In this document: piece after piece, positions 13,869-62,325 of the stretch
Position numbering within the stretch: the first letter of the stretch is position 1
Layout of the letters: each line of letters opens with the position of its first letter
IMG/VR virus record: IMGVR_UViG_3300029267_002727
Span: 33,715 to 97,714 of that record
Source: a virus
Reading direction: 5' to 3' (one strand)
Length of the DNA stretch: 64,000 bases
Program-made: the position numbers and the translations under genes
The notes under the pieces: generated by a model
The model's database searches: none
What the model was told of the DNA's origin: nothing
The model's input: only the letters and a program-made list of their open reading frames with translations

Positions 13869-13898
13869 CTTGACAGGTGTTTAGTTGCATGGTAGAAT
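13869..13898 (+). promoter_or_regulatory. Sigma70 promoter with putative operator
   Basis: TTGACA-17-TAGAAT with extended -10 TG; CTTGAC-aggt-GTTTAG. Confidence 0.8.
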
Positions 13899-13920
13899 GA
13901 GAACCAGATAAGGAGGCCCT

Positions 13921-14469
13921 ATGAACGATCAAGACCTAGCACGGCTAGTACTGGCAGGATACCCGATCTGGGTCGAGGTGACGGACGCACGGCTAGAAGT
14001 CTGCCCCCCGGACGGCCCTTCCCCCTCCCCATTTCCGTACGCCGAGTGGCTCGAGTACGCGGACGAGAACACCACCGAGGCCCTGGACATCTACGTAGAG
14101 TACAACGGCGAAATGTACTGGGCCGGCGAGCTCCTGAGCGGCATAGGGATCGGGCCCCTCCTCCGTAGTGAGGACGCCATGCGGGAGTATGCGTATCAGG
14201 GCGCGCGCGACCCGTTCCGACAGTGGGACGGGTTCTGTACAGAATGCTACAAGTTTTGTAGGAGGCGGCGCGTGATGCGGTCGATCGGTGGCGGGGAGTG
14301 GCAGTGCCCTTACTGTGACGCTATCGAGTATCACCCAGGGGACCTAGAGAGCCCGACCCTGACCACGAACAAGCAGAGAGCTCGGCGAATGGCCGAGCTC
14401 CTATGGGGTCTAGGGTTGCAGGAGCAAGCCCTGGAGTACGATCCAAGATATTCCCCGGAGGTAAACTGA
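13921..14469 (+). CDS. Hypothetical zinc-finger protein
   Basis: CTEC...CPYC; AAGGAGG RBS. Confidence 0.7.
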   Translation: MNDQDLARLVLAGYPIWVEVTDARLEVCPPDGPSPSPFPYAEWLEYADENTTEALDIYVEYNGEMYWAGELLSGIGIGPLLRSEDAMREYAYQGARDPFRQWDGFCTECYKFCRRRRVMRSIGGGEWQCPYCDAIEYHPGDLESPTLTTNKQRARRMAELLWGLGLQEQALEYDPRYSPEVN

Positions 14470-14690
14470 TGGACCCAGAACAGGCACGCACGATTTCGAT
14501 AGTACGCGAACTGGTGTGCGGCAAGCAACTGACGCTACCCAATGGTTACACCCTGGCCATGAGCAAAGATATGACCATCGGGTTCATCATGGGGTGTCAG
14601 GACTACATTGTGGGATCTATGACACTGGCGCAACTGCACGCACTACTCACCAAGTTCGATATCGGACCAGTCATCCCGGAGGTGAACTGA
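14469..14690 (+). CDS. Hypothetical protein flanked by 18-bp direct repeats
   Basis: CCCGGAGGT(A/G)AACTGATG at both ends. Confidence 0.6.
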   Translation: MDPEQARTISIVRELVCGKQLTLPNGYTLAMSKDMTIGFIMGCQDYIVGSMTLAQLHALLTKFDIGPVIPEVN

Positions 14691-14944
14691 TGCAGAACCA
14701 CAAGGACGAACTGACCAGCAAGCAGATCGCGGAACGTGAAAGGCTCTTGGCGCACGGTCTCCCCGAAGGCTATGGGGAGGAAGTCCCGGAGATGGATGGG
14801 GAAGAAGACCCCCGCAGCCGGCACGAGCGACGCGCGGACGCAGCCAGGGCCCGGAAGAAGAAGGCCCGCGAGGCCAAGATCCGAGCCAGGCGTAATCGGG
14901 CCCGCAAGAACAAGCGAGGAAAGAAGCGAGGGAAGAAGCAATGA
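14690..14944 (+). CDS. Small protein with very basic C-terminus
   Basis: Arg/Lys-rich tail ...RNRARKNKRGKKRGKKQ. Confidence 0.6.
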   Translation: MQNHKDELTSKQIAERERLLAHGLPEGYGEEVPEMDGEEDPRSRHERRADAARARKKKAREAKIRARRNRARKNKRGKKRGKKQ

Positions 14945-15312
14945 GCGTGCTTAGTAACCCCACAGAGTGGGCAGAGGGATACCGGGCGTTCTGGCGAGGG
15001 CTGTCGTGGCAGGATACCCCGTACGAAAGCGGCCCAAAGTGGTCGGCATGGGATAGGGGCTGGACGTACGCGGCCAACCAAGAAGCGGAAGAACAGCGGC
15101 GGCGCAACGAGAGCGAACCAATCGACACACCCGCCAGCAGTGAACTATCCGTTGCCTGGTCCCGCGGCTATCTCCACTACTGGCACGACAACCGTCCCAA
15201 CGAGTATGAAAAAGGCTCCATCGAGTACGCCGACTGGCAGGTAGGGTTTGAAGATGCCGCCGAGGAGGACTACCTCGACACCATAGAAACTGAGGAGGAG
15301 CTTGATGATTGA
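14941..15312 (+). CDS. RMF-like (Rmf/CrpP-fold) protein, two motifs
   Basis: WAEGYRAFWRG..TPY..WDRGW and WSRGYLHY..NEY..WQVGF. Confidence 0.7.
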   Translation: MSVLSNPTEWAEGYRAFWRGLSWQDTPYESGPKWSAWDRGWTYAANQEAEEQRRRNESEPIDTPASSELSVAWSRGYLHYWHDNRPNEYEKGSIEYADWQVGFEDAAEEDYLDTIETEEELDD

Positions 15313-15610
15313 GATCTACGAGGTGACGCACCACCTCCCCTACGTGTGCCCCAACTGTGAGGGCCGCCTGACTGTAGTGGGAACCGCAACGAACGAACGC
15401 AACAACCCGGTGATCGGCCTATACTGCCCGCGCTGTGACAGGGCAATGGAGATCGAGATCGTCCTCGACGGCCGGCGCAATCCGCACGCCGAGGGATATG
15501 CCCAGTACGAGCTCTACCTCGATGTTACCAACCCCTATCGCGATGAGTGGCACGCCCAGCGCTTTCATCAGGGAGTGGAAGACGCCAAGAAAGACGAGAT
15601 CCCCTTCTAG
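15305..15610 (+). CDS. Zinc ribbon plus degenerate RMF-like motif plus SSB-like DEIPF tail
   Basis: CPNC..CPRC; HAEGYAQY..NPY..FHQGV; ends DEIPF. Confidence 0.65.
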   Translation: MIEIYEVTHHLPYVCPNCEGRLTVVGTATNERNNPVIGLYCPRCDRAMEIEIVLDGRRNPHAEGYAQYELYLDVTNPYRDEWHAQRFHQGVEDAKKDEIPF

Positions 15611-15620
15611 GAGGACCAAG

Positions 15621-15911
15621 ATGAGTAGCGAGAGCTACCACGAGGGATACCTTGACTTCCAGCGCGGCCACGGGTGCCAATGCAACCCCTACACCCCCAT
15701 GACCTGCGAGTGGCGTGGTTGGAGAAATGGTTGGTTCCAGGCCAAGCAAGATAAGGGCTGGCCCTGGCACGAAGGCTACGATGCCTACCAGAATGGCATT
15801 TCCTGGACCGACAACCCGCATCCAGTGAACGCCGAAGACAATGCGTGGCTGGAGTGGGACGCCGGCTGGGAGCAGGCCCGGCGAGAAGAGGAAGCTATCC
15901 AGGATGAGTGA
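15621..15911 (+). CDS. RMF-like protein, two motifs
   Basis: YHEGYLDFQRG..NPY..WRNGW and WHEGYDAYQNG..NPH..WDAGW. Confidence 0.72.
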   Translation: MSSESYHEGYLDFQRGHGCQCNPYTPMTCEWRGWRNGWFQAKQDKGWPWHEGYDAYQNGISWTDNPHPVNAEDNAWLEWDAGWEQARREEEAIQDE

Positions 15912-16179
15912 ATCAACCGCCTACGTCGAAGGATACTGCGCTTGGGCAGATGGGAGCCTGTGCCCGTACGTTTCTCTGTCTCAGGAGTGGTGGGACTGGC
16001 ATCGCGGCTACTGGCAGGCTAAACAGGAGGACTTTGAGGCCCAAACCCCGTACCAGGAAGGCCATGAAGCCTACTTTCGAGACGTGGACCTGGACGATAA
16101 CCCCTACCCGCCCTCTGAGTCCGCGCACGCTGACTGGAACGCCGGCTGGACGCAGGGTGAGCTAGAGGTTATAGATTGA
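15904..16179 (+). CDS. RMF-like protein, two motifs
   Basis: YVEGYCAWADG..CPY..WHRGY and YQEGHEAY..NPY..WNAGW. Confidence 0.72.
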   Translation: MSESTAYVEGYCAWADGSLCPYVSLSQEWWDWHRGYWQAKQEDFEAQTPYQEGHEAYFRDVDLDDNPYPPSESAHADWNAGWTQGELEVID

Positions 16180-16292
16180 TAACCATATCTGGTTATCGAC
16201 CAGGGCACGCACGTAGGGGCCCAAAAGAGTGAAGACGTCAGACACCTGTGTAGCGCTACAGTAGCGTTACACCGCGTTACAGGAGATATAGC

Positions 16293-16610
16293 ATGAGCCC
16301 ATTTGATGAAGGCTACCAAGCATACTGGAACGGCGAGGGCCCCGAGGCCAATGCGTACGAAGACGGCGAGAACAGGTTCTTCTGGAACACAGGCTGGGTA
16401 TGGGCAGAGTATGATGACGCCAGCCGCACGAATGAGCCAGCGCGCAAACTGCTCAGTGGCGAGGCCGTAGAGATCAACACGGTGGGAGGCCTGCGCGGAG
16501 CGATCGCGGCGCTGCCGGATGTACTCGATGTTCGGGCGTGCTCGGATCAGGGCTTCCACTTCATTACCCTCATGGTCGATGGGAACACGCTGCTTATGGA
16601 GGCTGAGTAA
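16293..16610 (+). CDS. RMF-like motif fused to a C-terminal domain
   Basis: FDEGYQAYWNG..NAY..WNTGW. Confidence 0.7.
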   Translation: MSPFDEGYQAYWNGEGPEANAYEDGENRFFWNTGWVWAEYDDASRTNEPARKLLSGEAVEINTVGGLRGAIAALPDVLDVRACSDQGFHFITLMVDGNTLLMEAE

Positions 16611-16611
16611 T

Positions 16612-16812
16612 ATGTGGGGCTTTGAGATAGCAAGTGATGGTACTCCGGTGGCCGTTGAGGTGCCAACCCCGTACGAGCAGGGCCACCTGGCCTTCTTCGA
16701 GGACAAGGATCTGTCTGAGAACCCGCACATCCGTGACGACTACCGGGCAGAATGGGAGGATGGCTGGCACGCAGCCCGAGCCGAGCAGCGATGGCGGCGG
16801 AAGAGGAAATAA
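16612..16812 (+). CDS. RMF-like protein
   Basis: YEQGHLAFFE..NPH..WEDGW. Confidence 0.7.
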   Translation: MWGFEIASDGTPVAVEVPTPYEQGHLAFFEDKDLSENPHIRDDYRAEWEDGWHAARAEQRWRRKRK

Positions 16813-16852
16813 CTATGAGCGAACTGAGCATACCCGAGATGGAGGCTGAGTA

Positions 16853-17092
16853 ATGAGACCATGCGAGGAGCAAGAGTACAGGTGTGGACGCAATGCGTTC
16901 CTCGACTCGTTTCCATACGACAAAAGCAGATCGGGCGCCTGGCGCAGCGGCTGGATGCACGAGTATCACGTGGCCAGGCGCCAAGACCGGGCCGACCTCA
17001 CTGACGAGATCGAGGCAGCGCTGAGAAAGTACGGGCTATCCTTCCATGACGCGCACAATGCCGTCACAGAGGCCCTGGATCGTGTATTCTAG
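16853..17092 (+). CDS. Shortened RMF-like motif plus C-terminal helices
   Basis: YRCGRNAF..FPY..WRSGW. Confidence 0.6.
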   Translation: MRPCEEQEYRCGRNAFLDSFPYDKSRSGAWRSGWMHEYHVARRQDRADLTDEIEAALRKYGLSFHDAHNAVTEALDRVF

Positions 17093-17100
17093 GAGGTGAC

Positions 17101-17445
17101 ATGACCGACAAATGCTACAACGAAGGCGTATTGGCCCGCAAGCGCAACGAGTCCAGGGATAGTTGCCCCTATTATACGTCCAATCGTGTAGACTGGCTCC
17201 GTGGCTGGGATGACCAGGACTGGCGTATCTCCCGTACTACCCCTATAGGCTACGACGACATCGTGGTACGGATACCTATGTACCCGGAGGACATGGCAGA
17301 CTGGCCGTACGCAGAGATACGGGAAGCCGTGATGGAAGCCCTGATAGAGGGGCTGGAAGATGTCTTCATCGCTACCCCCGCCTGTATGAGCAGGGAAGAC
17401 GCGGAGGAGTGCGTTGCCGAGGCGGTGGGCAGGGTGTGGCAATGA
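17101..17445 (+). CDS. RMF-like protein (closest to canonical RMF) with acidic C-terminal domain
   Basis: YNEGVLARKRNESRDSCPYYTSNRVDWLRGW versus RMF GYQAG..GRSKEMCPY....SQWLGGW. Confidence 0.75.
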   Translation: MTDKCYNEGVLARKRNESRDSCPYYTSNRVDWLRGWDDQDWRISRTTPIGYDDIVVRIPMYPEDMADWPYAEIREAVMEALIEGLEDVFIATPACMSREDAEECVAEAVGRVWQ

Positions 17446-17463
17446 GCGCCGAGACATGGCAAG

Positions 17464-17694
17464 ATGGCACTATATAGTATAGCGGCCCTCGCAATAAGTG
17501 ACACCGGCTCCGAAATATGGGTCGGCAGTGTTCTGGCAGACACTCAGGAGGAGGCCGAGAGGTACGGCCTCGGGGTGGCGCTAGATTGGCTCCCCTGTTC
17601 GTGTGGGTACAGATCCCACAGATGCTGGGCAACACAGGTTCCTGACGGGTATGTACACAAAGCATACCACGAGATTCACGCTCTAGGGAGGTGA
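17464..17694 (+). CDS. Hypothetical protein, paralog of 18283-18567
   Basis: MALYSIAA..GSVLADTQEEA..G..P..GY pattern shared. Confidence 0.55.
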   Translation: MALYSIAALAISDTGSEIWVGSVLADTQEEAERYGLGVALDWLPCSCGYRSHRCWATQVPDGYVHKAYHEIHALGR

Positions 17695-17698
17695 ATGT

Positions 17699-17857
17699 AT
17701 GTCTCGAACTTGTATGAGCAACGCCTGGAAAGAAGGGTTTAAGGCATACCAGTGCGGTGTTCCGTTCGGCGCTAACCCCTATCCCATTTGCTACGATGAT
17801 GACAGGTGGATAGAATGGGAAAATGGCTGGGTCCAAGCGTGTAAATGGTCGCAGTAA
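17699..17857 (+). CDS. RMF-like protein, 52 aa (below the ORF-track cutoff)
   Basis: Read by hand: MSRTCMSNAWKEGFKAYQCGVPFGANPYPICYDDDRWIEWENGWVQACKWSQ after GGAGG. Confidence 0.72.
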   Translation: MSRTCMSNAWKEGFKAYQCGVPFGANPYPICYDDDRWIEWENGWVQACKWSQ

Positions 17858-17877
17858 TGAGTGAGTAAGGAGGTAAC

Positions 17878-18279
17878 ATGAAAGACAATACAGTCAGTAA
17901 CCTGGCCCTCTGGCTGGGCGATGTTCTGGCCGAACGCGCTGACGAAGTGAGTGCCCCTGAGTGCCGCGCTGCCCTGGAGCAGGCAATGGAGAGCGTCGGG
18001 ATCCCAGACCACATGGAGGGATACGACGAGATCGTCGGTTTCGACGAGAAGAGCGACACCGAGCAGTGGCTGATCTGCTGGATCGGCACGCTTACCCCGG
18101 ACAAGCAGTTCGGGGACAGCCCCAGTCAGGGGTGGTCGCTCGTCGCCAACTTCTGGAGCGTGGAGTTCAACCTGTTCATCCGTGAGTTGGCCCAGAAGAT
18201 GGAAGAGCACGTTGACTACTGCGTAGACGAGAAGCTGAAAGAGATCCGCGACTACTATGAGTGCGGGGATGGGTGGTAA
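17878..18279 (+). CDS. Hypothetical acidic protein
   Basis: AAGGAGG RBS. Confidence 0.65.
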   Translation: MKDNTVSNLALWLGDVLAERADEVSAPECRAALEQAMESVGIPDHMEGYDEIVGFDEKSDTEQWLICWIGTLTPDKQFGDSPSQGWSLVANFWSVEFNLFIRELAQKMEEHVDYCVDEKLKEIRDYYECGDGW

Positions 18280-18282
18280 GCC

Positions 18283-18567
18283 ATGAGACTGTACGCAGTG
18301 GCAATGAGCGCCAGCTACGTAGAGGGCAATGAGGTGTATATCGAGACCCTAGCAGGTTCGGTGTGGGCCCGCTCTCAAGATGAAGCCGTAGGAGCAGGGT
18401 ATCGCCGCGTTGCACAAGACTACCCCCTCAGCGACGGATGGGAAAACTACTCTGTCGCGGCCTCTGAGATCCCAGAAGAGGCGCGATTGATGCCCGAAAT
18501 CAAGCTGGAAGAAGACTACGAAGACTACGCACAAGGGTACGCCATGGGTTTGGGATACGACCCATAA
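18283..18567 (+). CDS. Hypothetical protein, paralog of 17464-17694
   Basis: MRLYAVAM..GSVWARSQDEAVGAG..YP..GW. Confidence 0.6.
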   Translation: MRLYAVAMSASYVEGNEVYIETLAGSVWARSQDEAVGAGYRRVAQDYPLSDGWENYSVAASEIPEEARLMPEIKLEEDYEDYAQGYAMGLGYDP

Positions 18568-18587
18568 GACATGGTAAAGGAGCTAAC

Positions 18588-18950
18588 ATGAGCGCAACAG
18601 GCCCCGACCAAACTTGGGAAGAAGGATACAACGCCGGGTTCTACGAGGGGAAACACGCCGACAACCCATACAGTGGGCACGACGAGAGGTTTCACCCGTG
18701 GAACCAGGGCGTACAGGCAGGGTACGATGACGGCTTCTGGCCATTCTATGACGAGGGTATCGAAGCGCGCAGTGATCGCGAGCGCCTCGAAGATAACCCA
18801 TACGAGCCTCGCACTCTCGAGTCAGAGATGTGGAAACGCGGCTGGATAGCCGAGTTTGAGAGAGTGCACGAAGACCGTGGGTGGCACTGGCTGTTCAAAG
18901 CGTCTGATCGCATTGTCTTTCAGCCGGAGGGGGAGATATGCTCTACCTAG
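18588..18950 (+). CDS. RMF-like protein, two motifs
   Basis: WEEGYNAGFYEG..NPY..WNQGV and YDEGIEA..NPY..WKRGW. Confidence 0.72.
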   Translation: MSATGPDQTWEEGYNAGFYEGKHADNPYSGHDERFHPWNQGVQAGYDDGFWPFYDEGIEARSDRERLEDNPYEPRTLESEMWKRGWIAEFERVHEDRGWHWLFKASDRIVFQPEGEICST

Positions 18951-21501: not shown

Positions 21502-21511
21502 GGAGAAACAA

Positions 21512-23742: not shown

Positions 23743-23771
23743 ATTATAGCGCACTTAACACCGTGCGTCAA
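23743..23771 (-). promoter_or_regulatory. Sigma70 promoter of the TerS-like gene
   Basis: TTGACG-17-TATAAT on the minus strand. Confidence 0.75.
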
Positions 23772-23786
23772 GGTGTGAATTGGGGG

Positions 23787-23816
23787 GTTGACAGGCGTCA
23801 AGCGATATGCTAAAAT
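23787..23816 (+). promoter_or_regulatory. Sigma70 promoter with putative operator (divergent from the previous one)
   Basis: TTGACA-17-TAAAAT with extended -10 TG; GTTGAC-aggc-GTCAAG. Confidence 0.8.
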
Positions 23817-25082: not shown

Positions 25083-25091
25083 GAGGAGAGC

Positions 25092-38652: not shown

Positions 38653-38682
38653 CTTGACATCCGTTAAGTCTTGTGGTACACT
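38653..38682 (+). promoter_or_regulatory. Sigma70 promoter with putative operator
   Basis: TTGACA-17-TACACT with extended -10 TG; CTTGAC-atcc-GTTAAG. Confidence 0.8.
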
Positions 38683-38717: not shown

Positions 38718-38960
38718 ATGACACAAGTGAAGCTATCAGAGAAGGCTCGGCGAGTCTACCAGGCGATGTGCGACCTCCAGGAGGAGCATGTACGACTTGG
38801 CGCCACCTTGCAGGCTATCGCAAAGCGCGCCGGGCTCAACAACCGGGGGTCGGTCGCCTATCACCTGCCGGCGCTTATCGAGGCAGGGCTGGTGAGGGAT
38901 GCTGGCACAAAGAGCCACAAGTACGTGGCTGTCGTGCCGGTGGAGGACAAGGATGAATGA
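38718..38960 (+). CDS. LexA-type winged-helix DNA-binding protein without peptidase domain
   Basis: LSEKARRVY..TLQAIAKRAGLNNRGSVAYHLPALIEAGLV matches the LexA N-terminal domain pattern. Confidence 0.75.
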   Translation: MTQVKLSEKARRVYQAMCDLQEEHVRLGATLQAIAKRAGLNNRGSVAYHLPALIEAGLVRDAGTKSHKYVAVVPVEDKDE

Positions 38961-46775: not shown

Positions 46776-47066
46776 TGAGCAGCCCATGTCCTTTCGAGGC
46801 AGTTGTGACCTATGGCAACCTAACATTTCTGGCGAGCAGGGGGCTTATTTGCAATTACGTTACCGTGGTCCGGGTCAGCGATGGCAAGATAGGGAGCCCG
46901 TCAAAACAAGACTGCCAGCGTATTGCTAATGCCCTCACGCGTGGCATCAGTGACATTAACCTAAGAGAGTGTAATGGGCCAATATGCCAAGGCTGGTGCG
47001 CAGTCACAGCAGATGATGTAGAGAGAGCGATTCAGGAGGCGCGGACCCTCTTGGAAAAAGAGGGGG

Positions 47067-47096
47067 CTTGACAGCCGTTAAGTAACCTGCTATACT
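47067..47096 (+). promoter_or_regulatory. Sigma70 promoter with putative operator
   Basis: TTGACA-17-TATACT with extended -10 TG; CTTGAC-agcc-GTTAAG. Confidence 0.82.
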
Positions 47097-50078: not shown

Positions 50079-51830
50079 ATGGGAATCCCTTGCAGGCCCT
50101 ATCAACAAGAGGCTGTTGACGCACTGTGGGAAGCACTGAAGAAGGACGACGTGTGGGCGGTTGGGTGTGCGATGGCTACCGGCCTGGGTAAGACCCGAGT
50201 AGGCCTCGTGTTTATCGACCAGCACCTGGATGGCGGCCGCGCTCTGTGGCTGGCCCACCGCAACAAGCTGGTGGAGCAGCCCCTGGAGCGGCTCCGAGAA
50301 CTATGGCCAGATGCCAACATCGGTGTAGTCAGGGCGCGCAAGAACGACGTCGATGCAGACATCATTTTGGGTAGCGTGGCCACGCTCACCCGCGAGAACC
50401 GGATGCAGGAGCTCTTGGCCGCGGGCAAGATCGACATCATCGTGACGGATGAATGCCATCACGGCCCCAGCGAGTCATACGAGCGCATCTACAAGTGGGT
50501 CAGGGAGCACAACCCAAACGTGGTGCACGTGGGCCTCACTGCGACCCCGTGGAGGCGCGACGGTAAGTGGGCAAAGGGCGAGTGGACGTTTCAGGAGCTC
50601 CCCCGAGGAGCCCAGAAAAATATCCGCTGGGGAATCCGGGAGGGGTGGCTAGTTCCCCCTGTGGGAACTGAGGTCGAAACGGAGGTCTATAAGCAAGGTA
50701 AGTTTGCCGCCGACCTGTCAAGGGTAAGGGTCACCGCAGGCGACTTCAACACCGGCGAGCTCGCAGACGTTCTCGATGCTGCTCAGTGGCATCTGCTTGT
50801 CGCTAAGTATTACCTCGAGCACTTTGTCACGCCGTACGATGAAGAGAAAGAGGTTGTAGGCAGCGGCGAGGGCAAGCAGGCCATCGCCTTCACCGTCGAT
50901 GTTGCGTCCTCGAAGAAGCTGTGCGAGGAGCTCAAGTCCAGGGGCGTGAAGGCTGCCCATATCGACGGCACGATGTCGGACAAAGATCGTAAGCCTATCG
51001 AGCGCGGGTTCACATCGGGCAAGATACAGGTACTGTGCAACTGCGCGGTCTACACGGAGGGGGCAGACTTCCCCTCCGCTGAGGTTGTACTGATGGCCAG
51101 GCCCACCAGGTCGCCCGGCTTGTTCACACAGATCGTAGGTCGCGGCTTGCGCCCCTATCCCGGTAAGGACCACTGTGATGTAGTCCTGTTCGCCGGTCAC
51201 GGCGCAGACCTGATGACCCTCTTCGACCTTGGCAAGAGCAAGAAGGTCAAGAAGGCGGAGAAGGCAGCCAAGGAACTTGGGATCCCAGGCGTGAGCGCCG
51301 GCATCAATGTGTTCGATGAGCATACGGTCACCGGCGCTGGCACGAAGGCTACACTGGTGTCCCTGTTCAACGGGAGCAAGCACGCCTGGTTCCGCGATGG
51401 CGCCGTGTTCTCCCTGGGCCTGGGCGAAACTAAGGATGAAAAGAGCGGAAACCTGTACCAGAGGACACTCGTCATCTTGCCGCCTAATGGGGATGACTGT
51501 TGGCACCTGATGGCCTTGGGCCGGAGGGTGTGGTACGGCCAGGACCAGAAGCGACACGGCGGCCAGTGGCGCGTGTACGAGCTCGATGCAGGAATGGATA
51601 TCGAGGAGATGATGGATATGGCGGCTGGCGTCATCGAACGACGGGCCTGCAATACCCTCTCCAAGAAGCGCAAGCGGTGGAGGAAGGATCCTGCATCCAA
51701 GGGCCAGCTAGGAACACTTCATAGGATGGGCGTTACGCCGCCCAAGGGCCTCGGAAAGGGTGATGCGTCCAGGCTGATATCTCACTACATTGCGATGAAT
51801 GTGCTGAGGAAGGAGGGGTACGTATCATGA
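50079..51830 (+). CDS. Superfamily 2 DEAD/DEAH-box helicase
   Basis: RPYQ, ATGLGKT, DECHH, GLTATP, TEGAD, QIVGRGLR. Confidence 0.93.
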   Translation: MGIPCRPYQQEAVDALWEALKKDDVWAVGCAMATGLGKTRVGLVFIDQHLDGGRALWLAHRNKLVEQPLERLRELWPDANIGVVRARKNDVDADIILGSVATLTRENRMQELLAAGKIDIIVTDECHHGPSESYERIYKWVREHNPNVVHVGLTATPWRRDGKWAKGEWTFQELPRGAQKNIRWGIREGWLVPPVGTEVETEVYKQGKFAADLSRVRVTAGDFNTGELADVLDAAQWHLLVAKYYLEHFVTPYDEEKEVVGSGEGKQAIAFTVDVASSKKLCEELKSRGVKAAHIDGTMSDKDRKPIERGFTSGKIQVLCNCAVYTEGADFPSAEVVLMARPTRSPGLFTQIVGRGLRPYPGKDHCDVVLFAGHGADLMTLFDLGKSKKVKKAEKAAKELGIPGVSAGINVFDEHTVTGAGTKATLVSLFNGSKHAWFRDGAVFSLGLGETKDEKSGNLYQRTLVILPPNGDDCWHLMALGRRVWYGQDQKRHGGQWRVYELDAGMDIEEMMDMAAGVIERRACNTLSKKRKRWRKDPASKGQLGTLHRMGVTPPKGLGKGDASRLISHYIAMNVLRKEGYVS

Positions 51831-52063
51831 GTCTCACAGATCGTGAGATGGATATCTTGGAGATGGCGGCGCGGGGATGGACGAACTGCGGCATAGCCGC
51901 CTACTATGACATCAGCAGGCAAACAGTAAAGAACCACATGTCATCAGTGATGGCGAAGCTGTGCGTCACATCCAGAACAGGGGCGGTGGTTGTGGCCTTC
52001 CAGCTTGGCTTGATAGATCTGTTTCACGTGCGCGTAGAACGGACATACGACCATGAAGATTAA
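51827..52063 (+). CDS. Stand-alone LuxR/NarL-type HTH regulator
   Basis: LTDREMDIL..G.TN..IA..ISRQTVKNHMSSVMAKL.V.SRT.AV. Confidence 0.88.
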   Translation: MSLTDREMDILEMAARGWTNCGIAAYYDISRQTVKNHMSSVMAKLCVTSRTGAVVVAFQLGLIDLFHVRVERTYDHED

Positions 52064-52315
52064 GTGGTCTGTTGTTCTGCTCCTGCTGCTCGCAACGACA
52101 CTGTACAGAATGGGGCAGGATGTACCACGATGAATAGGAGGTCCTTATGAGACTAAGGTTCCCGTTCCGCAAGATGGCGCCACGCGCGCCCACAAAAGAA
52201 GACGACGAAGAGCAGCGGCGCAGGGAGGCCGCTGCTCTTCGCAAGAAGCTACAGAAGGATCGTCCATGGTACCTGAAGGTAAAGGGTAATACCGACGAGC
52301 TAGGGAAATTGGGTA

Positions 52316-52345
52316 CTTGACAGATGTCGAGCCCCATGGTATATT
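52316..52345 (+). promoter_or_regulatory. Sigma70 promoter with putative operator
   Basis: TTGACA-17-TATATT with extended -10 TG; CTTGAC-agat-GTCGAG. Confidence 0.78.
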
Positions 52346-53439: not shown

Positions 53440-53454
53440 GCGCGAATCGAGCCG

Positions 53455-53488
53455 GGGCGAGGGAGGGCCGAGAGGCTCTCCCCCGCCC
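53455..53488 (+). terminator. GC-rich hairpin with GAGA loop after the annealase gene (no U-tract)
   Basis: GGGCG-A-GGGAGGGCC-GAGA-GGCTCTCCC-C-CGCCC. Confidence 0.5.
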
Positions 53489-54851: not shown

Positions 54852-55571
54852 ATGGGATACGTCAGTTTTGACATCGAGATCGCTAAGGACAACCTGAAGA
54901 AGGGTGAGCCCTGGGAGCCCTACTTCAGCGAGATGGGGATCACTTGCGCGGCCACCTTGGCCATTCCGGGCAACCGCCTGATGGACTGGCACCCGCTGGA
55001 GCAGGACAAGGCCAAGGCGTTCCGGCCCAAGATGGACCAGGACGAGGTTTGTGTGATGGTACAGTACCTGATCTCGCAGGTCGAGCGCGGCAACCCTCCC
55101 CTGGCGTGGAACGGAGCGCGTTTCGATTTCTGGGTCCTGATGGAGGAGGCCCCCGAGTCGATGAAGCACGACATCATCGCCCTGGCGTGGGGTCAGATTG
55201 ATCCCGGGTTCCAGATGATGAACGACCTCGGTTACATGTGCAGCCTGAAGGCGGCGGCCGAGGGGATGGGCGTCGAAGGCAAGTTAGATGGAATGACCGG
55301 TGCTCAGGCGCCGGCAGCCTGGAAAGAGGGGCGGGAACGTCAGGACTTGGTCATCGAGTATGTGAGACAGGACGTTGTGGCCGCCCACAACGTGTATCAG
55401 GCGATCCTGGAGAAAGGGCGCCTCGAGTGGGTGTCTGGTCGTGGGAATCAGATGCAGTGGACGCCAGAGATCAAGGACGGGCGACTCTTGACGGTCTTGG
55501 AGTGCATGCAGAGACCGCAGAAGAGAAATCCACTGATGAGCAGAGAGGAGGCGGTTGCATGGATGAAGTAG
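54852..55571 (+). CDS. RNase H-like DEDDy 3'-5' exonuclease
   Basis: FDIE, WNGARFDF, SLKAAA, YVRQDV. Confidence 0.82.
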   Translation: MGYVSFDIEIAKDNLKKGEPWEPYFSEMGITCAATLAIPGNRLMDWHPLEQDKAKAFRPKMDQDEVCVMVQYLISQVERGNPPLAWNGARFDFWVLMEEAPESMKHDIIALAWGQIDPGFQMMNDLGYMCSLKAAAEGMGVEGKLDGMTGAQAPAAWKEGRERQDLVIEYVRQDVVAAHNVYQAILEKGRLEWVSGRGNQMQWTPEIKDGRLLTVLECMQRPQKRNPLMSREEAVAWMK

Positions 55572-56332
55572 AGTATCACGCAAGTCCGCCGCAGTGGGCG
55601 CGGGACTATATCGAGGAAGTAGGCGACGAGACAGTTGAACCTTCCGTCTGGAGTGCTGCGAAGCCTGGGGTCGATATGCCGGCATTCCTACACACTCCAC
55701 TCATGCGGTTCGCGGCTCTGTGGGCAATTTTCTCGTGCCTTGTAACCTGTGCCATAATGGCGGTGATTCAGTGAGCGAGGATATTGTGATTTACAGTGCC
55801 GAGTATCCCAAGGACGAGCCCTTGTGGGTGGTCATATTCCTGGGGCCGCTGGTCCGCTTTTCGGTCGTAGCTGTTGCCACCGTGTCGATTTTCGCGGTGC
55901 TGACGCTGTGGTTAGTGATACAGATATCAGGAGGATAAACATGGAAGACCCTATCAACAACATCATCAAGACATTCCCGGTGAACGAGACTATCGCCGTC
56001 GAGGATTTGGCGGAGTGGACGCAGGCCGGCTGGGCGTACGTAGGCACGTTTGTCTTTACAGAGGACGTGCAGACGATACAGATCGCGCGCCCGGGCCAGC
56101 CAGATGTGCCGGTGATGCCACGTCACGTTTTCGTCCGGCCGCCCGGACTAGTCTCTACAACGGTGGTCATGTCCACGATCATGGGTGTGGCAGAGGCGTT
56201 CGGAGACAACGAGGAGGTCGAAAAGGCCCTGGACGCGGTGCTGCACAACCTCACCGGTCAAACCATCGAGGGGTTCAGGAAGCGGGCCGCGCAGTATCGG
56301 GCCATGCAGAAAGAACAAGGAGGCATGCTACA

Positions 56333-57313
56333 ATGAGCCAGGTACGAGTCGCGGTAGACGTCGGGTATTGGGGCACGAAGGTACTCTGGGCTAACGGCGA
56401 GCATGGGAGTTCGATCTTTCCCTCAGCGGTAGGGACCCCCGACGAGGCACGGTTCTCCCTGGGGTTCGAGGGGAAATCAATTATCCTGCGTGAGCCCCGG
56501 AATGTGGTTATCGGCCGGCGGGCACTGATGACAAGTCGCCACGTCGTGCAGTCCCGGTCACCTGACTGGGTGCGGTCGCCTGAATGGTACGACCTGTTCT
56601 TGGCCTCGTTGACCGAGGTCACGCAGGCCCTGAACTACAACCTGGACCTCTGTGTCGGGCTGCCGATGGCACACTACAAGCCCAACAAAGAGATCGTGAG
56701 GGCGCGCCTTCAGGATACACACGTTGTGGTACGCGAGGGCCGGCAACCCCAGCGGTTCCACGTGCACGAGGTCCGGGTAGTGCCCCAGGCCTGGGGTGTC
56801 GTTATTGACCAGGCGATCGACGGTAATGGGGAATACGACGTTTCATGGCTGAACTACACAGTCGGAGTGATCGACATCGGTGGAAATACCACCAACATCC
56901 TGGCCCTGGATGGCCTGGCCGAGGTCCCGTCAGGGAGCACATCTATCGCCAAGGGTGCGATGGATATCACAAGCGCGCTACAGGCATGGCTGAACGATAA
57001 CTGCCCCGGCCTCTCGCTGCGGACGCATAAGCTGATGCGGGCTGTCACTGACCGCAAAGTGATGTATGACGGGGAATGGATAGACCTTAGCGAAGTCATT
57101 GAAGGGATCGCAGAGCCAATGGTTGCCGAGGTTGTGGCCCAGACGAGCCAGCGTTGGCCGAACCTGGTTGGCATCGACAAGTTGCTGATCGGTGGCGGCG
57201 GCGGGGCCCTGCTGGGTGCATATATCCAGGAGAGGATCCCCCGGGCTATCTTGGTGGATGACCCGGTCATGGCAAACGTCAGGGGCTACTTCAAGCTGCT
57301 AGGGGTCAAATGA
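56333..57313 (+). CDS. parM: ParM/StbA actin-like partition ATPase
   Basis: VDVGYWGTK, VGLP, VVPQ, IDIGGNTTN, IGGGGA, ANVRGY. Confidence 0.9.
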   Translation: MSQVRVAVDVGYWGTKVLWANGEHGSSIFPSAVGTPDEARFSLGFEGKSIILREPRNVVIGRRALMTSRHVVQSRSPDWVRSPEWYDLFLASLTEVTQALNYNLDLCVGLPMAHYKPNKEIVRARLQDTHVVVREGRQPQRFHVHEVRVVPQAWGVVIDQAIDGNGEYDVSWLNYTVGVIDIGGNTTNILALDGLAEVPSGSTSIAKGAMDITSALQAWLNDNCPGLSLRTHKLMRAVTDRKVMYDGEWIDLSEVIEGIAEPMVAEVVAQTSQRWPNLVGIDKLLIGGGGGALLGAYIQERIPRAILVDDPVMANVRGYFKLLGVK

Positions 57314-57624
57314 TGAGGGACGAGAGAGACAGAAAGACCATTAGCTTCCCGCCCGAGGATCACGATTTGGTCGTTTATCTCGATTCTTGTGATAACGCGT
57401 CATGGGAGGTGAGGCAGGCCCTTCGCCAGTACATAGAAGGCAAGGACCGCGTAGAGGCCTTGTGCGAGCTCATGATCCAGCAACATCAACGCATGGCTGA
57501 GACGCTGGAGCGCCTGGAGCATAACGGAGTCGCAGTCCCGAGGTCTAACCCTCACCATAGTGAGGGGATCTCTGCGGAGCACGAGGAGATGGCGGCTAAG
57601 CTCAGGGACCTGGGCAAGGTGTGA
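57310..57624 (+). CDS. ParR-like ribbon-helix-helix adaptor
   Basis: RKTISF..DHDLVVYLD..NASWEVRQALRQYI; coupled directly to parM. Confidence 0.7.
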   Translation: MMRDERDRKTISFPPEDHDLVVYLDSCDNASWEVRQALRQYIEGKDRVEALCELMIQQHQRMAETLERLEHNGVAVPRSNPHHSEGISAEHEEMAAKLRDLGKV

Positions 57625-57649
57625 CAGAGTAAGACAACGGAGTATGACA

Positions 57650-58303
57650 ATGTCGTATTCTTACGATGATAACGGTTTGAGGCCCGGAAGCGACGTGCAC
57701 GTACACACCAGTGGGGGAGGGGGAGGGCGCCTGGCTATCATTATGGGCGCCGTGCTTATCTTTGCCCTGATCGCGATGGGCGCAGCGGGAATCCGTAGCT
57801 TTGGCCCGGAGGCCAAAGCCCGCGCAGAGGTAATCGTCAGGACTCCTGTACCAACTCCGACGCCAATGCCCGAGGTGGTGCAGTCACAGACCAGGGCCAC
57901 CGTCTCTTTCTACGACGTGGTGCGTTGGCTCGTGTACGTGGGCGGCGCATCCCTCGCCGTTCTGGTTGTTGCGCTTGTACTGTCGTGGTCATGGCGGCGG
58001 CGGGAGTATGCTGCCCAGAGAGCGGTACAGCAACTGCATCGGACGAACCCATCCCTGATCAGTGGGTGGGATGAAGTGTATGACCCACTTGGTTCCGGGA
58101 CTCTGTATCTGGGTGAGCCATCGCAGCCAGCAAATATCGAGCACGCGCAGCTTGTGGCGCAGAACTTTAGTGCGGCGGCTGCCTGGAAGCAGGTAGTTAG
58201 CGCTCTAATACAGGCGCAAAAACAACGACAGCTAAGTGGCCCTGAATGCACCACGCTCGAGCGCGGCCTGACGCGACTAGAACAACTGGAGAGCGGTCAA
58301 TGA
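57650..58303 (+). CDS. Two-TM membrane protein with PTPTP linker
   Basis: Hydrophobic helices flanking TPVPTPTP. Confidence 0.6.
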   Translation: MSYSYDDNGLRPGSDVHVHTSGGGGGRLAIIMGAVLIFALIAMGAAGIRSFGPEAKARAEVIVRTPVPTPTPMPEVVQSQTRATVSFYDVVRWLVYVGGASLAVLVVALVLSWSWRRREYAAQRAVQQLHRTNPSLISGWDEVYDPLGSGTLYLGEPSQPANIEHAQLVAQNFSAAAAWKQVVSALIQAQKQRQLSGPECTTLERGLTRLEQLESGQ

Positions 58304-59001
58304 AAGATGCGCTGAAAAGAGGAGCCCTTCTAGGTGTCCTCCTGGGGGCAGTGGCGCTCGCCACAGTGCTAGGACTTACGTTCCTGGGCACAAATGAGCC
58401 GGATATCGGGTATGGCAAGCTAGTCCTGGGGCTAACAGTGTTGTGCCTGGGGGCAGGGGCGCCAGCAGGGGCCCTCGTGGGGGGCCTACAGTACCACCGC
58501 GCTATGATGGAGCCGGAAGCGGCGCCGCCCATCATGGACGAGGATCCGTACGAATACCAGATATACGAGGATGACGGGTGGGACGCAGACATCGAGGACG
58601 CGGAGGGCCCGGACGAGCCCCCGCAGGACCCAACGCTGGCCGAAAAGATCGTGGAGTGTGCCAGGTTGCAGGCAATGTGGCACTATGAACGGGGCCGAGA
58701 GCCCACCAGAGGCGCATTCAAAGAGGCCGGCGTAAGCCAGCCGATATGGAACAGTGCGCGACATCTCTTGAAGATCATGAAGCTGGTGGGCGGGTCGGGC
58801 AGGAGTGTGTCTTGGGAGAGCGCTCATGCCAGCAAGGTGAAGAAATACCTCAACAGAATAGCAGCAGACGGAGACAAGATCTGGGTGCCCACGTTCGGGA
58901 ATGGGCATGACTACCACCAGATCGGGGTGTCAGAGACGCTGGAGAAGAACCGGCACACGCGATACCGGCCGGCGTACACCGCCCCACTCCACAGTGGCTA
59001 G
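58300..59001 (+). CDS. Membrane-anchored protein with acidic linker and possible wHTH C-terminus
   Basis: Two N-terminal TM helices. Confidence 0.55.
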   Translation: MKDALKRGALLGVLLGAVALATVLGLTFLGTNEPDIGYGKLVLGLTVLCLGAGAPAGALVGGLQYHRAMMEPEAAPPIMDEDPYEYQIYEDDGWDADIEDAEGPDEPPQDPTLAEKIVECARLQAMWHYERGREPTRGAFKEAGVSQPIWNSARHLLKIMKLVGGSGRSVSWESAHASKVKKYLNRIAADGDKIWVPTFGNGHDYHQIGVSETLEKNRHTRYRPAYTAPLHSG

Positions 59002-59078
59002 CGATTCGTTTGGATCGGTTATAACCAGGAAACCAACAAACCGAACCGATCTGTAAACCAAAAACGGAGGTAGAAACC

Positions 59079-59774
59079 GTGACACGGAGAAGTGGTGAAG
59101 ACAAAGACCTGCAATCTGCATCGAAGAGGCGCATCACAGCCATTTGGAAGATTGGGTGGATGGGGGCCGGGATAATCGCCGCGCTCGTGCTCCTGTACTT
59201 CGACATTCTATATAGCGCCGATGGCATGATCCCCATTTTTGGGAAGAGCGAGAGCGCTTTCTATCTTTGTTGGGCCCTGAGCATCATCATGAGCCCAATC
59301 GAGATGGCAACGTCGTCCATTATGACAGACCCAGATCAGCGCGCAGAACTCGGCCCGGACGCGCGCGCCATCGGCATGACCATCGGATCCCTGGTGTTTG
59401 TTGCCGATATCGTGACGAACTGGCTGGGGCTATACCTGAGCGCGGCAGCGGACGGTATCGTGACAACCCTCAACTATCTTGTCATCTTCGTGGTCGGCGG
59501 CATACTGGCATTCGTCGAGTACGTGATTGAGTTTCTGGTATCGCTACTGTCCAAGGAGATCGCAAACTTCAAGGTGGCCAACCAAGAGTTCCAAGAGTGG
59601 CATGAACAACACGGCCAGTCCTCGCGCAGCCACTCTCGCGGTAACTCGCCACGCAGTCACAGCCGCCCGCCTGGCGGGTCGCCACGCAGGCCCGGCGGAA
59701 CGCCCAATATGGGCCGCCCGTCCCGCGATGATGGGTTCCGGGATCGGCCTGCGCCGAGAGGGAGGACGATGTGA
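59079..59774 (+). CDS. Four-TM membrane protein with Arg/Ser-rich tail
   Basis: Hydropathy pattern; GGAGG RBS. Confidence 0.6.
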   Translation: MTRRSGEDKDLQSASKRRITAIWKIGWMGAGIIAALVLLYFDILYSADGMIPIFGKSESAFYLCWALSIIMSPIEMATSSIMTDPDQRAELGPDARAIGMTIGSLVFVADIVTNWLGLYLSAAADGIVTTLNYLVIFVVGGILAFVEYVIEFLVSLLSKEIANFKVANQEFQEWHEQHGQSSRSHSRGNSPRSHSRPPGGSPRRPGGTPNMGRPSRDDGFRDRPAPRGRTM

Positions 59775-60124
59775 GAAGAGTAATCTGGCTGGCTTTGGTG
59801 CTCTTGTGTGTTGCGGCCGGGCCCACTGATCATTGTGGGCCTGGCCAGGTCGCCGTCACCTACCCGAACGGAGAGGTAGTGTGCGCGCAGAATGCCTGGG
59901 CATCAAACGGGTTTGCGGTGACGTATTCAGAGTACGCCGGGGAATACTGGCACACAGAGGTGTGGGTCGCAGGGCCCGGGAGCGCTACCATGAGCTATAA
60001 CGGGATGCCGTTTGCGCCGCAAGGGAACGCCGGAGAGGTGCCATGGGATCGAATGGGGTGGCGCGACGAGTACGGCGTGCATGTGAAGCTCACGCAAGTG
60101 ACAACGTCAGAGGGTGCGCAATGA
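59771..60124 (+). CDS. Secreted hypothetical protein
   Basis: MRRVIWLALVLLCVAA signal peptide. Confidence 0.55.
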   Translation: MRRVIWLALVLLCVAAGPTDHCGPGQVAVTYPNGEVVCAQNAWASNGFAVTYSEYAGEYWHTEVWVAGPGSATMSYNGMPFAPQGNAGEVPWDRMGWRDEYGVHVKLTQVTTSEGAQ

Positions 60125-60629
60125 CACTGCCGGCGCACTTTGGAGAGTTTAGTGGGTTCTTTGAGTTTCCCACGATGGAGATTATAGACAGGATGCTGGT
60201 CGCGGGGATACAGCTAGACATGGCCGCGGCCGCCCAGCGACTGCGCGATCTCCAGACAGAAAAGGAGAAGTACCATGAGTCGTCGTTACTACCGCCAGCC
60301 GAGTCGCAGTGGTCAGTACAGGAAACGTAGTACACCGCGCAGAAGGCGGGGGAGTGCCCCAAGGTGGCTGATAGTACCGATCTTGATGGTGCTGGTGCCG
60401 CTGTGCGCATGGATCATCGGCCGGCTACCTGGAGGCTGGTAATGGATGATAATCGGGAATCGGCGCAAGGAGACTGGAACATGAATGGTGGCCCGGGTGA
60501 TCCAACGTACACAGGGCCTGGTCTCTCGTTCTATTGCCTTGTCGGGGTGCTCGCCGTACTGTTCTTGTGTGCGGTTATAGTCTATGTCACGTAAATACCC
60601 CCAGAGGTAATTTTCGCAGCATAAAGTAT

Positions 60630-60656
60630 AAGCCCCCGCTCTCCAGGCGGGGGCTT
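60630..60656. terminator. Probable bidirectional terminator at the convergent junction
   Basis: AAGCCCCCGC-7nt-GCGGGGGCTT between plus- and minus-strand blocks. Confidence 0.7.
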
Positions 60657-60690
60657 GTTCATCTCTCCGAAGCAGTTGGCGGCCTGCCTG

Positions 60691-61038
60691 CTACAGGAGA
60701 AGGATGACAACCACTCCCAGGGCCACCGCGAGTGTGACAAGGGCAGTATCCGTAGCCGACGCCGCTTTCAGCCGCTGTTTGAGCGCTTCTGGCCAGTATC
60801 CTCTGTATGTCAAGAACGCGACGATGGCGGCCAGGGTGATCGGCCCATAGGCGGCCAGCCACGGAAGCAGGGCCACCAGGTCCTCCAAAAGCATCACCAC
60901 GACCACGAGGCCGGCAAAGATGGCGCCACAGATATTCTCCAGGGCGTTACCGCTGAGGCCGCATCCTTGCAGGAACGCCTTGAGCGCCGACACAAGCACC
61001 AGGATCGGCACTCCCCACAAAAGTAGTTCCAAGTCCAT
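60691..61038 (-). CDS. Holin-like membrane protein
   Basis: Three to four TM helices; last gene of the late block, near the endolysin. Confidence 0.55.
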   Translation of the reverse strand: MDLELLLWGVPILVLVSALKAFLQGCGLSGNALENICGAIFAGLVVVVMLLEDLVALLPWLAAYGPITLAAIVAFLTYRGYWPEALKQRLKAASATDTALVTLAVALGVVVILLL

Positions 61039-61039
61039 C

Positions 61040-62275
61040 TCAGTCACTCCTTTCATTCTCTTGATGAAGCACGAATAACGGTTCCGAGATCTCCACATCC
61101 ATGAGATCGGTGTGCTTCACGGGCTTGTAATCGTCCTCGGCAACCCGGTAATGGAGCCAGCGCAGTTGTGTTTGTGACGACCACCCGCCGCCAGATAGCT
61201 GCGTGTGGCTGATCACCCCGCCGATTTCTGGCGTGAGCGCCTTCTCGGCCAAGTAGATGTTCTGGCTCTCAAAGCAGCCGGGGTTGAGGACGGTCATGGG
61301 GCCATGAAAGAACAGGTCCTTGTAATGGACGTGGCCCCATTGTAGGATAACAATCAATCGTGTTTCGGCCTCTGTGACGGCCTCGTTCAGCCAGTCTTTT
61401 GTGGCGTCCTCCGCGCCCTTCTGGCCTCTATATGACTTGGCGTAAGGTGCCCCTCCGGTTGGGTGCCACATACGCACGTTCAGTGCCCCGGTGTCTCCCT
61501 GCATAAGTGGGATGTCTGACTTTCCAAACCCGGCGTATACACAGTCACTGCGATGCTCACAGATGGTGCGAACCACGTTGACGCCGTCTGCTTTGAAGTG
61601 TGACTCGTCGTGGTTCCCGCCCATCAGGAGCCAGGTAAAGCCCTCGTACTGGGGCAGGCCTTCGCAGGCTGCGTCGATCTGCTCGTCACCTCCATAAGCG
61701 TACAGGTCAAAGTTGATACCCCGGTACATATTGATGCCGTGGGTGATATCGCCGCTCACGAGTCCATATTTGCATCCCTCCTCTTCTACGGCCACCTTGG
61801 TGATATGCCGCAGGGCACTATTTTGGTGATGGATCGACCCAAAATGCAGGTCCGACAGGTGAAGCAATGAGATCATTTGGCCCTGTGGCCAGATGTAGTC
61901 CAACTTGGGCCGGTGCGCCGGCCGCTTGGGCATCACGATCTTGTTCGCTCGCTCGGAGAGCTCGTAGCGCCCGCTCTCGCGCATGCCAGCGAGGATCTTG
62001 TCGATAGTGCCGGGCCCTACATCCAGGATGTCCGCGAGATGGATCCTGGTCTGGGGCCCGTGCTTGAGAGCCTTGACGACCTGCTCTGTGCGGGCATCCA
62101 CCACTTCTTCCAGGCTCTCCCCTTCGGGCCACGTGTTTTCCATGGTGTCCTTGAGGGAGGATGGCGGTATACCCAGAGCCCTCGACGCCGCTGCCCAGGT
62201 TTGTTTTCCTCCATTTTTAAGGTACTCGATGACCGCTTGCCTCACCTGTTCTGGGTCGTACTTTCTTTTGGGCAT
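61040..62275 (-). CDS. HTH-fused calcineurin-like metallophosphoesterase
   Basis: SDLHFG, GDITHG, GNHD, WHP, GHVH; two N-terminal HTH-like segments. Confidence 0.85.
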   Translation of the reverse strand: MPKRKYDPEQVRQAVIEYLKNGGKQTWAAASRALGIPPSSLKDTMENTWPEGESLEEVVDARTEQVVKALKHGPQTRIHLADILDVGPGTIDKILAGMRESGRYELSERANKIVMPKRPAHRPKLDYIWPQGQMISLLHLSDLHFGSIHHQNSALRHITKVAVEEEGCKYGLVSGDITHGINMYRGINFDLYAYGGDEQIDAACEGLPQYEGFTWLLMGGNHDESHFKADGVNVVRTICEHRSDCVYAGFGKSDIPLMQGDTGALNVRMWHPTGGAPYAKSYRGQKGAEDATKDWLNEAVTEAETRLIVILQWGHVHYKDLFFHGPMTVLNPGCFESQNIYLAEKALTPEIGGVISHTQLSGGGWSSQTQLRWLHYRVAEDDYKPVKHTDLMDVEISEPLFVLHQENERSD

Positions 62276-62295
62276 TGTTTTCCACCTCCTCTATT

Positions 62296-62325
62296 AGTGT
62301 AGCAAAGAACTTAACACTTGTCAAG
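62296..62325 (-). promoter_or_regulatory. Sigma70 promoter with putative operator
   Basis: TTGACA-17-TACACT with extended -10 TG; CTTGAC-aagt-GTTAAG. Confidence 0.8.

Follow-up and report, generated by a model that had tools for sequence, protein, structure and literature searches.

A palindrome over the -35 box of six promoters in an uncultured phage: a putative operator and two small candidate binders

The Gram-positive LexA box is CGAAC-N4-GTTCG, proteins of the NarL/LuxR family bind inverted repeats as dimers, and sites of the form hexamer-N4-hexamer are known for ComA and DosR. Repressors that serve many promoter-overlapping operators are also a known strategy of phages: the immunity repressor of cluster A mycobacteriophages, for example, has operator/stoperator sites and down-regulates early lytic promoters (PMC9283540). 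Here we describe a stretch of 64,000 nucleotides (the window, bases 33715-97714 of the 97,714-bp virus record IMGVR_UViG_3300029267_002727, an uncultured phage), in which a 16-bp imperfect palindrome, CTTGAC-N4-GTYNAG, lies over the -35 box of a set of promoters and may be an operator; this would be the same strategy in a new phage, and no new principle.

The locus resembles cluster A phages in that many copies of a short site are found over the genome at phage promoters. However, stoperators are asymmetric, bound by a monomer and also located inside transcribed regions, where they stop elongation, whereas here the palindrome is found only on promoters. The repressor of cluster A is known, while here there are only candidates, and no integration, integrase or immunity genes were seen within the window.

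The comparison with the LexA/SOS box (1LEA/3JSO) is also mixed. One candidate is a winged-helix protein, the two inverted half-sites are four bases apart and they overlap a promoter; in contrast, the half-site is TTGAC and not GAAC, and the candidate has no S24 peptidase/dimerisation domain and gives no LexA_DNA_bind match of its own. LexA represses DNA-damage genes and is cleaved upon activation of RecA; here we found nothing that links the motif to DNA-damage genes, and the genes behind the six promoters show no sign of a repair regulon. The AC-N4-GT core that a first-pass annotation of this DNA had likened to the Gram-positive LexA box is present, but the resemblance is weak (two of five half-site bases). 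The other candidate, a 78-aa protein, is a GerE-domain solo, like the GerE/NarL-family proteins GerE, VraR, LiaR, DosR and NarL. Last, TTGACA-N3-GTCAAG palindromes of some Actinomycetota have the same arms and spacing as those of the phage, but they precede cellular catabolic genes and their regulator presumably belongs to the TetR family, of which the phage has no match (TetR_N).

A motif confined to one class of promoters

The motif TTGACNNNNGTYNAG (TTGAC-N4-GTYNAG) has six matches in the window, at 13870, 23788, 38654, 47068 and 52317 on the plus strand and at 62310-62324 on the minus strand. Dinucleotide-preserving shuffles (n = 100) give a mean of 0.23 matches, and none of the 100 reaches six. 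The whole record contains the same six copies, with none in its first 33.7 kb, and a reversed-pattern control has no match in the whole genome. At all six sites the motif is part of a promoter of the sigma-70/sigma-A type form, TTGACA, a 17-bp spacer and TAnnnT, with TG at -15/-14, as the first-pass annotation had reported, and GTYNAG is found at the common offset that it had described. The coordinates used in that annotation are those of the base that precedes TTGAC, which is C at five of the six sites and G at 23787. The six promoters stand ahead of gene blocks, either in gaps or at the extreme end of the preceding gene, and a strong ribosome-binding site on the gene block follows just after each of them. 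The sites, including a variant with another spacing, are the following.

13869..13898, plus strand: promoter and putative operator, CTTGACAGGTGTTTAG, then TGgTAGAAT; heads the gene block 13921-23146.
23787..23816, plus strand: promoter and putative operator, GTTGACAGGCGTCAAG, then TGcTAAAAT; heads the block that starts at 23837.
38653..38682, plus strand: promoter and putative operator, CTTGACATCCGTTAAG, then TGgTACACT; heads the gene of an 80-aa winged helix-turn-helix (wHTH) protein as well as the replication block; the metagenome contig L010 (see below) has kept its orthologue.
47067..47096, plus strand: promoter and putative operator, CTTGACAGCCGTTAAG, then TGcTATACT; heads the block 47124-52320, which includes the helicase gene and the gene of a LuxR solo.
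52316..52345, plus strand: promoter and putative operator, CTTGACAGATGTCGAG, then TGgTATATT; heads the block 52381-60330.
62296..62325, minus strand: promoter and putative operator, CTTGACAAGTGTTAAG, then TGcTACACT; heads a 411-aa gene at 61040-62275.
23743..23772, minus strand: N7 variant, CTTGACG-N6-GTTAAG within TTGACG-17-TATAAT; divergent from the 23788 promoter, serves a 200-aa gene at 23121-23723.

The N7 variant, previously noted at a TerS-like promoter, is real: at the minus-strand promoter at 23771, GTTAAG comes seven bases after TTGAC instead of four. We considered the 200-aa gene behind it as a possible CI-like repressor and rejected it, the N-terminus of its product resembling the helix-turn-helix (HTH) of small terminase or transposase proteins; it has no family match.

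Searches with relaxed patterns give the same picture. The pattern GTYNAG-N5-TGnTAnnnT occurs seven times in the genome, six times at the motif promoters and once inside a gene, and CTTRAC-Nx-GTYAAG, with x from 0 to 12, is found in the phage with N4 (three sites) and N7 (one site) only, always at promoters. One site therefore recurs at several promoters, in six copies and one spacing variant, all on promoters, which confirms that the motif is real, non-random and restricted to one promoter class.

The phage also has promoter-like sequences that lack the motif. TTGAC[A/T]-16..18-TAnnnT is found at 11 sites genome-wide, six with the motif and five without it, the latter including the promoters near 7.8 and 8.2 kb that had indeed been described as lacking it:

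7864, 8215 and 8339, minus strand (7837..8339): three leftward promoters of the host type that lack the right arm, taken as the contrast class.
22448, plus strand: promoter-like site without the motif, inside a gene.
Genome 27786, minus strand: promoter-like site without the motif, before a gene of the virion region.

The right arm is thus not required for a promoter, since five of the 11 sites do without it, two of which share with motif promoters a GAATTGG-like element. This element (core AATTGG) lies 3-5 bases upstream of the -35 box at four of the six motif promoters and recurs at two of those that lack the motif; it could serve as an UP-like element or be bound by a second factor. The copy at 23777 sits between two divergent promoters. 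At two other promoters, a stretch AAAGAGGGG(g/t)C directly precedes TTGACA and replaces the GAATTGG element; at 47040, this stretch is the 3' arm of a hairpin, CCCTCTT...AAGAGGG.

Window 13859-13865, 23777-23783, 52306-52312, 7869-7875 (minus strand) and 8222-8229, and L010 21-27: GAATTGG-like element.
Window 47040-47066 and genome 27787-27805 (minus strand): AAAGAGGGG(g/t)C stretch.

The caveat of the first-pass annotation, that the left half-site is the -35 hexamer, is upheld, and only the right arm, which covers about -26 to -21, is specific to the motif. Across the six sites, its G, T, A and G are invariant and its third base is C or T, while the positions that flank it, three on the left and five on the right, vary. 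An invariant arm amid variable flanks points to selection on the arm bases and means that recent copy-and-paste cannot be the sole cause. Each of the four invariant bases complements the matching base of the -35 arm, CTTGAC; we estimate that such a mirror relation arises by chance with a probability of about 1/256 per register, or roughly 0.04 over about 9 registers. The right arm was also considered as the -35 box of a divergent promoter, which we rejected: there is no TAnnnT at the right distance on the opposite strand.

Comparative evidence comes from L010, a metagenome contig of 1,759 bp that encodes homologues of three consecutive genes of the phage (51% identity for the wHTH protein, 66% and 59% for the two others). 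Within its first 94 bases, the contig has AGATTGG-ggg-CTTGACGCCTGTCAAG-tgttg-TGgTATACT ahead of the wHTH gene; AGATTGG stands there in place of the GAATTGG-like element. Between L010 and the window, the arms are identical at 11 of 12 positions, the central bases at one of four and the promoter core at 30 of 39; the sequence further upstream cannot be aligned, and where residues are identical, 48-61% of the third codon positions agree. That the arms are kept and the centre is changed fits an operator whose centre would not be read.

Other relatives are hard to find. Scans of IMG/VR with the 80-aa protein, the helicase, a 283-aa neighbour and the LuxR solo gave no relative except one helicase with 26% identity. 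Nothing was found among deposited phages with blastn of 7.9 kb or with tblastn of a 586-aa protein of the virion region, and word-based searches gave one or two relatives each, on contigs of 0.5-1.3 kb. The lineage of this phage is rare.

A putative operator and its candidate binders

We propose, with a probability of about 0.55, that a dimeric repressor uses the palindrome, which covers the -35 box, as its operator and would thereby silence the rightward early/middle blocks together. This reading is favoured because the right arm is invariant, is complementary to the -35 arm, is absent from other promoters of the phage and is kept in a diverged relative. The motif, its position, its confinement to one promoter class and its conservation in one relative are observed; binding, repression and the identity of the binder are inferred. 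The six sites and the N7 variant would be promoters for the RNA polymerase of the host, of the sigma-70/sigma-A type, heading rightward early/middle blocks. A dimeric HTH repressor would bind both arms of the palindrome, whose centres are separated by 10 bp and face the same side of the DNA, and would contend with sigma region 4 for access to the -35 box. The promoter class would be shut off as a group, but not the promoters without the right arm, namely the leftward ones at 7864, 8215 and 8339 and another in the virion-gene region. If this is true, it provides a first regulatory map of a phage almost all of whose proteins are unknown, with two promoter classes read by the host polymerase, one of which can be switched off as a group, and with a compact promoter-operator pair and two small candidate repressors.

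Several observations weigh against this proposal. The left arm is no more than the -35 box itself, four of the five promoters that lack the motif also have C at -36, and the commonest form of the right arm, GTTAAG, is not the exact mirror of CTTGAC. The comparative support consists of one 1.76-kb contig, L010, in which the five spacer bases that follow the arm are 4/5 identical to those of the window, so that the divergence between the two is not saturated. The 80-aa wHTH protein, one of the candidate binders, has no evident dimerisation element in its predicted model, and about half of the positions of its recognition helix differ from those of the L010 homologue, the arms of the palindrome being the same. 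Moreover, a 30-base pattern that comprises the promoter and the palindrome is found in at least 117 stretches of IMG/VR, compared to 86 for a control in which the right arm is reversed; a crude clustering among the matches listed gives 35 clusters versus 29, and 13 versus 13 when a good -10 box is present.

The distinct 30-mers in this search number at least 87, versus 38 in the control. The pattern-bearing stretches listed are mostly from low-G+C phages, with no relative of the present phage among them; the first genes behind the promoters of these contigs are diverse and are not regulators, and two separate sites are found in only one contig among the matches listed. Since the pattern is frequent in unrelated phages, the motif alone indicates no particular regulator: it is not peculiar to this phage, whereas having six copies in one genome is.

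If the palindrome is an operator, two small proteins of the phage may be considered as its binder.

38718..38960, plus strand: 80-aa stand-alone wHTH protein, first candidate binder.
51827..52063, plus strand: 78-aa stand-alone LuxR/GerE-type HTH protein, second candidate binder.

The 80-aa protein had been described as a LexA-type wHTH without an autocleavage domain. The second half of this description stands: there is no match to the S24 peptidase/dimerisation domain (PF00717) and the protein ends after the wing. The first half holds only in the sense of a resemblance, as the protein itself has no match to LexA_DNA_bind (PF01726), even at E<=1, and its best Pfam match is HTH_20, just under the cut-off (26.5 bits versus 27), with HTH_36 and HTH_5 (E 0.058) also matched. 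An exhaustive search of 1.84 billion representatives gives only seven relatives at E<=0.001, of which three (90, 143 and 102 aa) pass LexA_DNA_bind with 48.4, 28.7 and 57.5 bits (cut-off 23.7). With a profile of eight sequences, the DNA-binding domain of E. coli LexA (1LEA) is matched at 8.7e-8 and the next family at 2.6e-3; with a profile of the five closest sequences, on the contrary, Rrf2 (0.0055) and TetR (0.025) come above LexA (0.051).

The predicted model, obtained from an eight-row input (pLDDT 77; the single-sequence model is poor, with pLDDT 64.7), consists of three helices and a two-strand wing, and nothing else. Foldseek finds no match to it at E<=0.001, and ranks IscR and LexA together at E 0.003-0.01, with a TM of 0.68-0.69 and an rmsd of 2.0 for LexA. 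In a wide structure search, many winged-helix families are tied at Z 8-10 and LexA is absent among the best 50 matches listed. Among the neighbours of the Atlas's own model of the protein, LexA_DNA_bind clusters appear in six of ten rows, several of them short and viral, while an Atlas feature search puts TrmB-like proteins at the top (0.92). The helix-3/wing stretch is 53-55% identical to that of 180-aa ArsR-type regulators of Kitasatospora and Streptomyces; no TTGAC-Nx-GTYAA palindrome is present upstream of the two ArsR-type loci L215 and L216. Our reading is that of a generic, stand-alone winged helix without a peptidase, bordering the LexA-domain and ArsR-like families; it appears LexA-like only through remote relatives and predicted structure, a resemblance and not a membership. 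Short proteins that consist only of a LexA domain already form named clusters in phages.

The 78-aa protein was to serve as a mere control in binding experiments, a role that underrates it. It is a GerE-domain solo, with a GerE match of 67.6 bits (cut-off 23.5; 7.5e-19) over residues 1-57 of 78. Its top NCBIfam match is the 74-aa solo PedR (1e-12, below the equivalog cut-off), and its closest solved relatives are the DNA-binding domains of VraR/LiaR, GerE (1FSE, 2.9e-7), DosR and NarL. It also matches sigma-70 region 4 (26.1 bits), the domain that reads the -35 box, and PHROGs labels it "sigma factor"; the relevance of this match to the -35 arm is suggestive only. Its gene closes the block headed by the 47068 promoter, and about 250 bp separate it from the 52317 promoter. 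The LuxR/GerE solo is at least as plausible a binder as the 80-aa protein.

No computed result separates the two candidates. Provided that there is an operator, we regard each of them, with equal weight, as a tentative assignment, and rank before them, at a little under even odds, the possibility that another phage protein or a host factor is the binder. A bolder form of the operator proposal, which we consider rather unlikely, is that a very small phage protein, with the LuxR/GerE solo and its likeness to sigma region 4 and the winged helix that consists of a LexA domain only as candidates, uses the -35 hexamer of the host as its half-site. To mark a promoter for silencing, the phage would then need only a mirror copy of the -35 box placed ten bases further downstream, in a sigma-competitive "mirrored -35" switch over at least seven operons.

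The proposal of the first-pass annotation was that the 80-aa protein is a LexA-derived, peptidase-less repressor of all six promoters including its own, that is, an autoregulated, Cro-like master switch. What survives of it is the operator, whereas the link to the 80-aa protein and the derivation from LexA are not borne out. Its gene is the first one after the 38654 promoter, and the order operator, wHTH gene and two neighbours is kept in L010; the remote relatives, the eight-sequence profile, the Atlas rows and the Foldseek superposition given above also speak for a LexA likeness. However, the first place after one of six promoters is a weak argument (we infer a chance of about 0.2 for one of about 4 HTH genes), and the missing LexA_DNA_bind match, the five-sequence profile, the tied winged-helix families and the ArsR-like wing stretch speak against it. 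Besides, LexA dimerises via its C-terminal domain, which also carries the self-cleavage site (PMC8565304), and the 80-aa protein lacks this domain. All in all, we find such a master switch unlikely.

Alternatives without a phage regulator

Next in order is the explanation that there is no dedicated regulator, GTYNAG being part of the promoter in the host, either as an activity-raising element of the spacer or of DNA shape, or because one lineage of promoters has inherited it, and its mirror relation to the -35 box being due to chance. The six promoters do share further features, the TG motif and the upstream GAATTGG-like element, and strong early promoters of known phages share sequence outside the -35 and -10 boxes. 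The best evidence against a spacer preference of the host is internal, as the phage has other promoters in which the right arm is missing: GTYNAG is absent from five of the 11 promoter-like sites, two of which have the same upstream element. In addition, all four invariant bases complement the -35 arm, a relation whose chance level we put at a few percent only, and RNA polymerase is not known to read positions -26 to -21 base-specifically. Nor is the 15-base pattern enriched in a sample of 301 genomes of Actinomycetota, a phylum that was picked on weak hints and may not be that of the host: it has 154 matches, four of them in unpublished genomes (G020, G050, G122 and G176) that enter into none of our other results, compared to about 217 for the reversed control (tallied by hand). 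This explanation is therefore improbable in our opinion, if slightly less so than those that follow.

It may also be that a transcription factor of the host binds the palindrome, which would tie the early/middle operons of the phage to a host signal. TTGACA-N3-GTCAAG palindromes are enriched in seven of the 301 actinobacterial genomes, with 10 versus 0 for the control in G113 and 7 versus 0 in G180. Among 20 sites from five genomes, the palindrome is found before genes of P450, aldehyde dehydrogenase, acyl-CoA synthetase, carboxylesterase and nitronate monooxygenase, and a divergent gene of the TetR family (TetR_N) is present at three loci (L221, L228 and L233).

L218-L237, in genomes G113, G154, G141, G180 and G139: regulon-like (C)TTGACA-N3-GTCAAG(T) sites of Actinomycetota.

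The palindrome being located before catabolic genes with a divergent TetR gene, cellular factors can use it as an operator. On the other side, no such regulon is linked to this phage, and the hints at an actinobacterial host are only weak: the best full-length matches of the helicase are to actinophages (28-29%, in a collection rich in them), and the others are the G+C content and the ribosome-binding sites. We therefore hold a host factor to be quite improbable.

The least probable explanation is a small hairpin in the sense strand of read-through transcripts, serving as a processing or stability signal: the variable arm positions pair only if G-U is allowed (Y opposite G, A or G opposite T) and RNAfold folds seven of eight sense-strand sites (-3.4 to -6.0 kcal/mol) versus three of eight antisense ones, but the stems are weak (5-6 bp), the site at 13870 does not fold, T, which makes the weaker G-U pair, is commoner than C in the arm, transitions are also the usual variation in protein-binding sites, and nothing would require an RNA signal to fall on the -35 box.

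Genome setting and further elements

The phage is very poorly known, as most of its proteins have no family match; it is novel and has almost no known relatives. The 97,714-bp record has a 144-bp terminal repeat and 189 genes, according to our own rough gene calls, and no tRNA genes are present. The genes are organised in three blocks.

Genome 2.7-41.8 kb, minus strand: leftward block with virion genes and sugar- or nucleotide-modification genes.
Window 8.3-60.3 kb, plus strand: long rightward block, rich in small unknown genes; it includes SSB, an O-like initiator, a DnaC-like loader, the helicase, a methylase and a ParM-like protein.
Right end of the window, minus strand: short leftward block.

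In the leftward block, outside the window, a 2,634-aa open reading frame (genome 7348-15252, minus strand; L008) lies in the virion-gene region. Its sole family match is to an exonuclease subunit of DNA polymerase, over residues 53-232 (PHROG 192, 2e-32). Within the window, a 150-aa protein encoded at 1624-2076 on the minus strand has a full-length match to the anti-Thoeris inhibitor Tad6 (5.7e-50), and the neighbours of its gene are NUDIX, epimerase, UDP-glucose dehydrogenase, glycosyltransferase and methyltransferase genes.

In the rightward block, the gene at 56333-57313 (plus strand) encodes an actin-like ParM/ALP protein (ALP_N 6.9e-20; PHROG partition protein 6.7e-45), which hints at plasmid-like maintenance or positioning of the phage DNA. 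Six small proteins encoded at 14941-18950 have weak matches to the RMF family (E 5.6e-8 to 2.3e-3). Two pairs of gaps between genes share long elements: a long inverted repeat, CAGAATTGyCTATATGCAAATGTAGACArTTCTG, is common to the gaps 9008-9146 and 9456-9600, where it follows a terminator-like hairpin, and a 50-base leader that ends in a ribosome-binding site is common to the gaps 10466-10545 and 10861-10979.

Regarding the same palindrome in other phages, one 31-kb IMG/VR contig (L012/L013) has two promoters 1.3 kb apart, both of the form CTTGACAACTGTCAAG-N5-TGaTACTAT, the cassette being reused. Another arrangement, found on several of the pattern-bearing contigs, from small phi29-like phages, consists of two promoters placed back to back: the -35 box of each falls within the spacer of the other, and CTTGAC-N4-GTCAAG is common to both.

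L024, L032, L042, L062, L073, L075, L078, L081 and L087: back-to-back pairs between packaging-ATPase-like and small membrane-protein genes of small gut phages.

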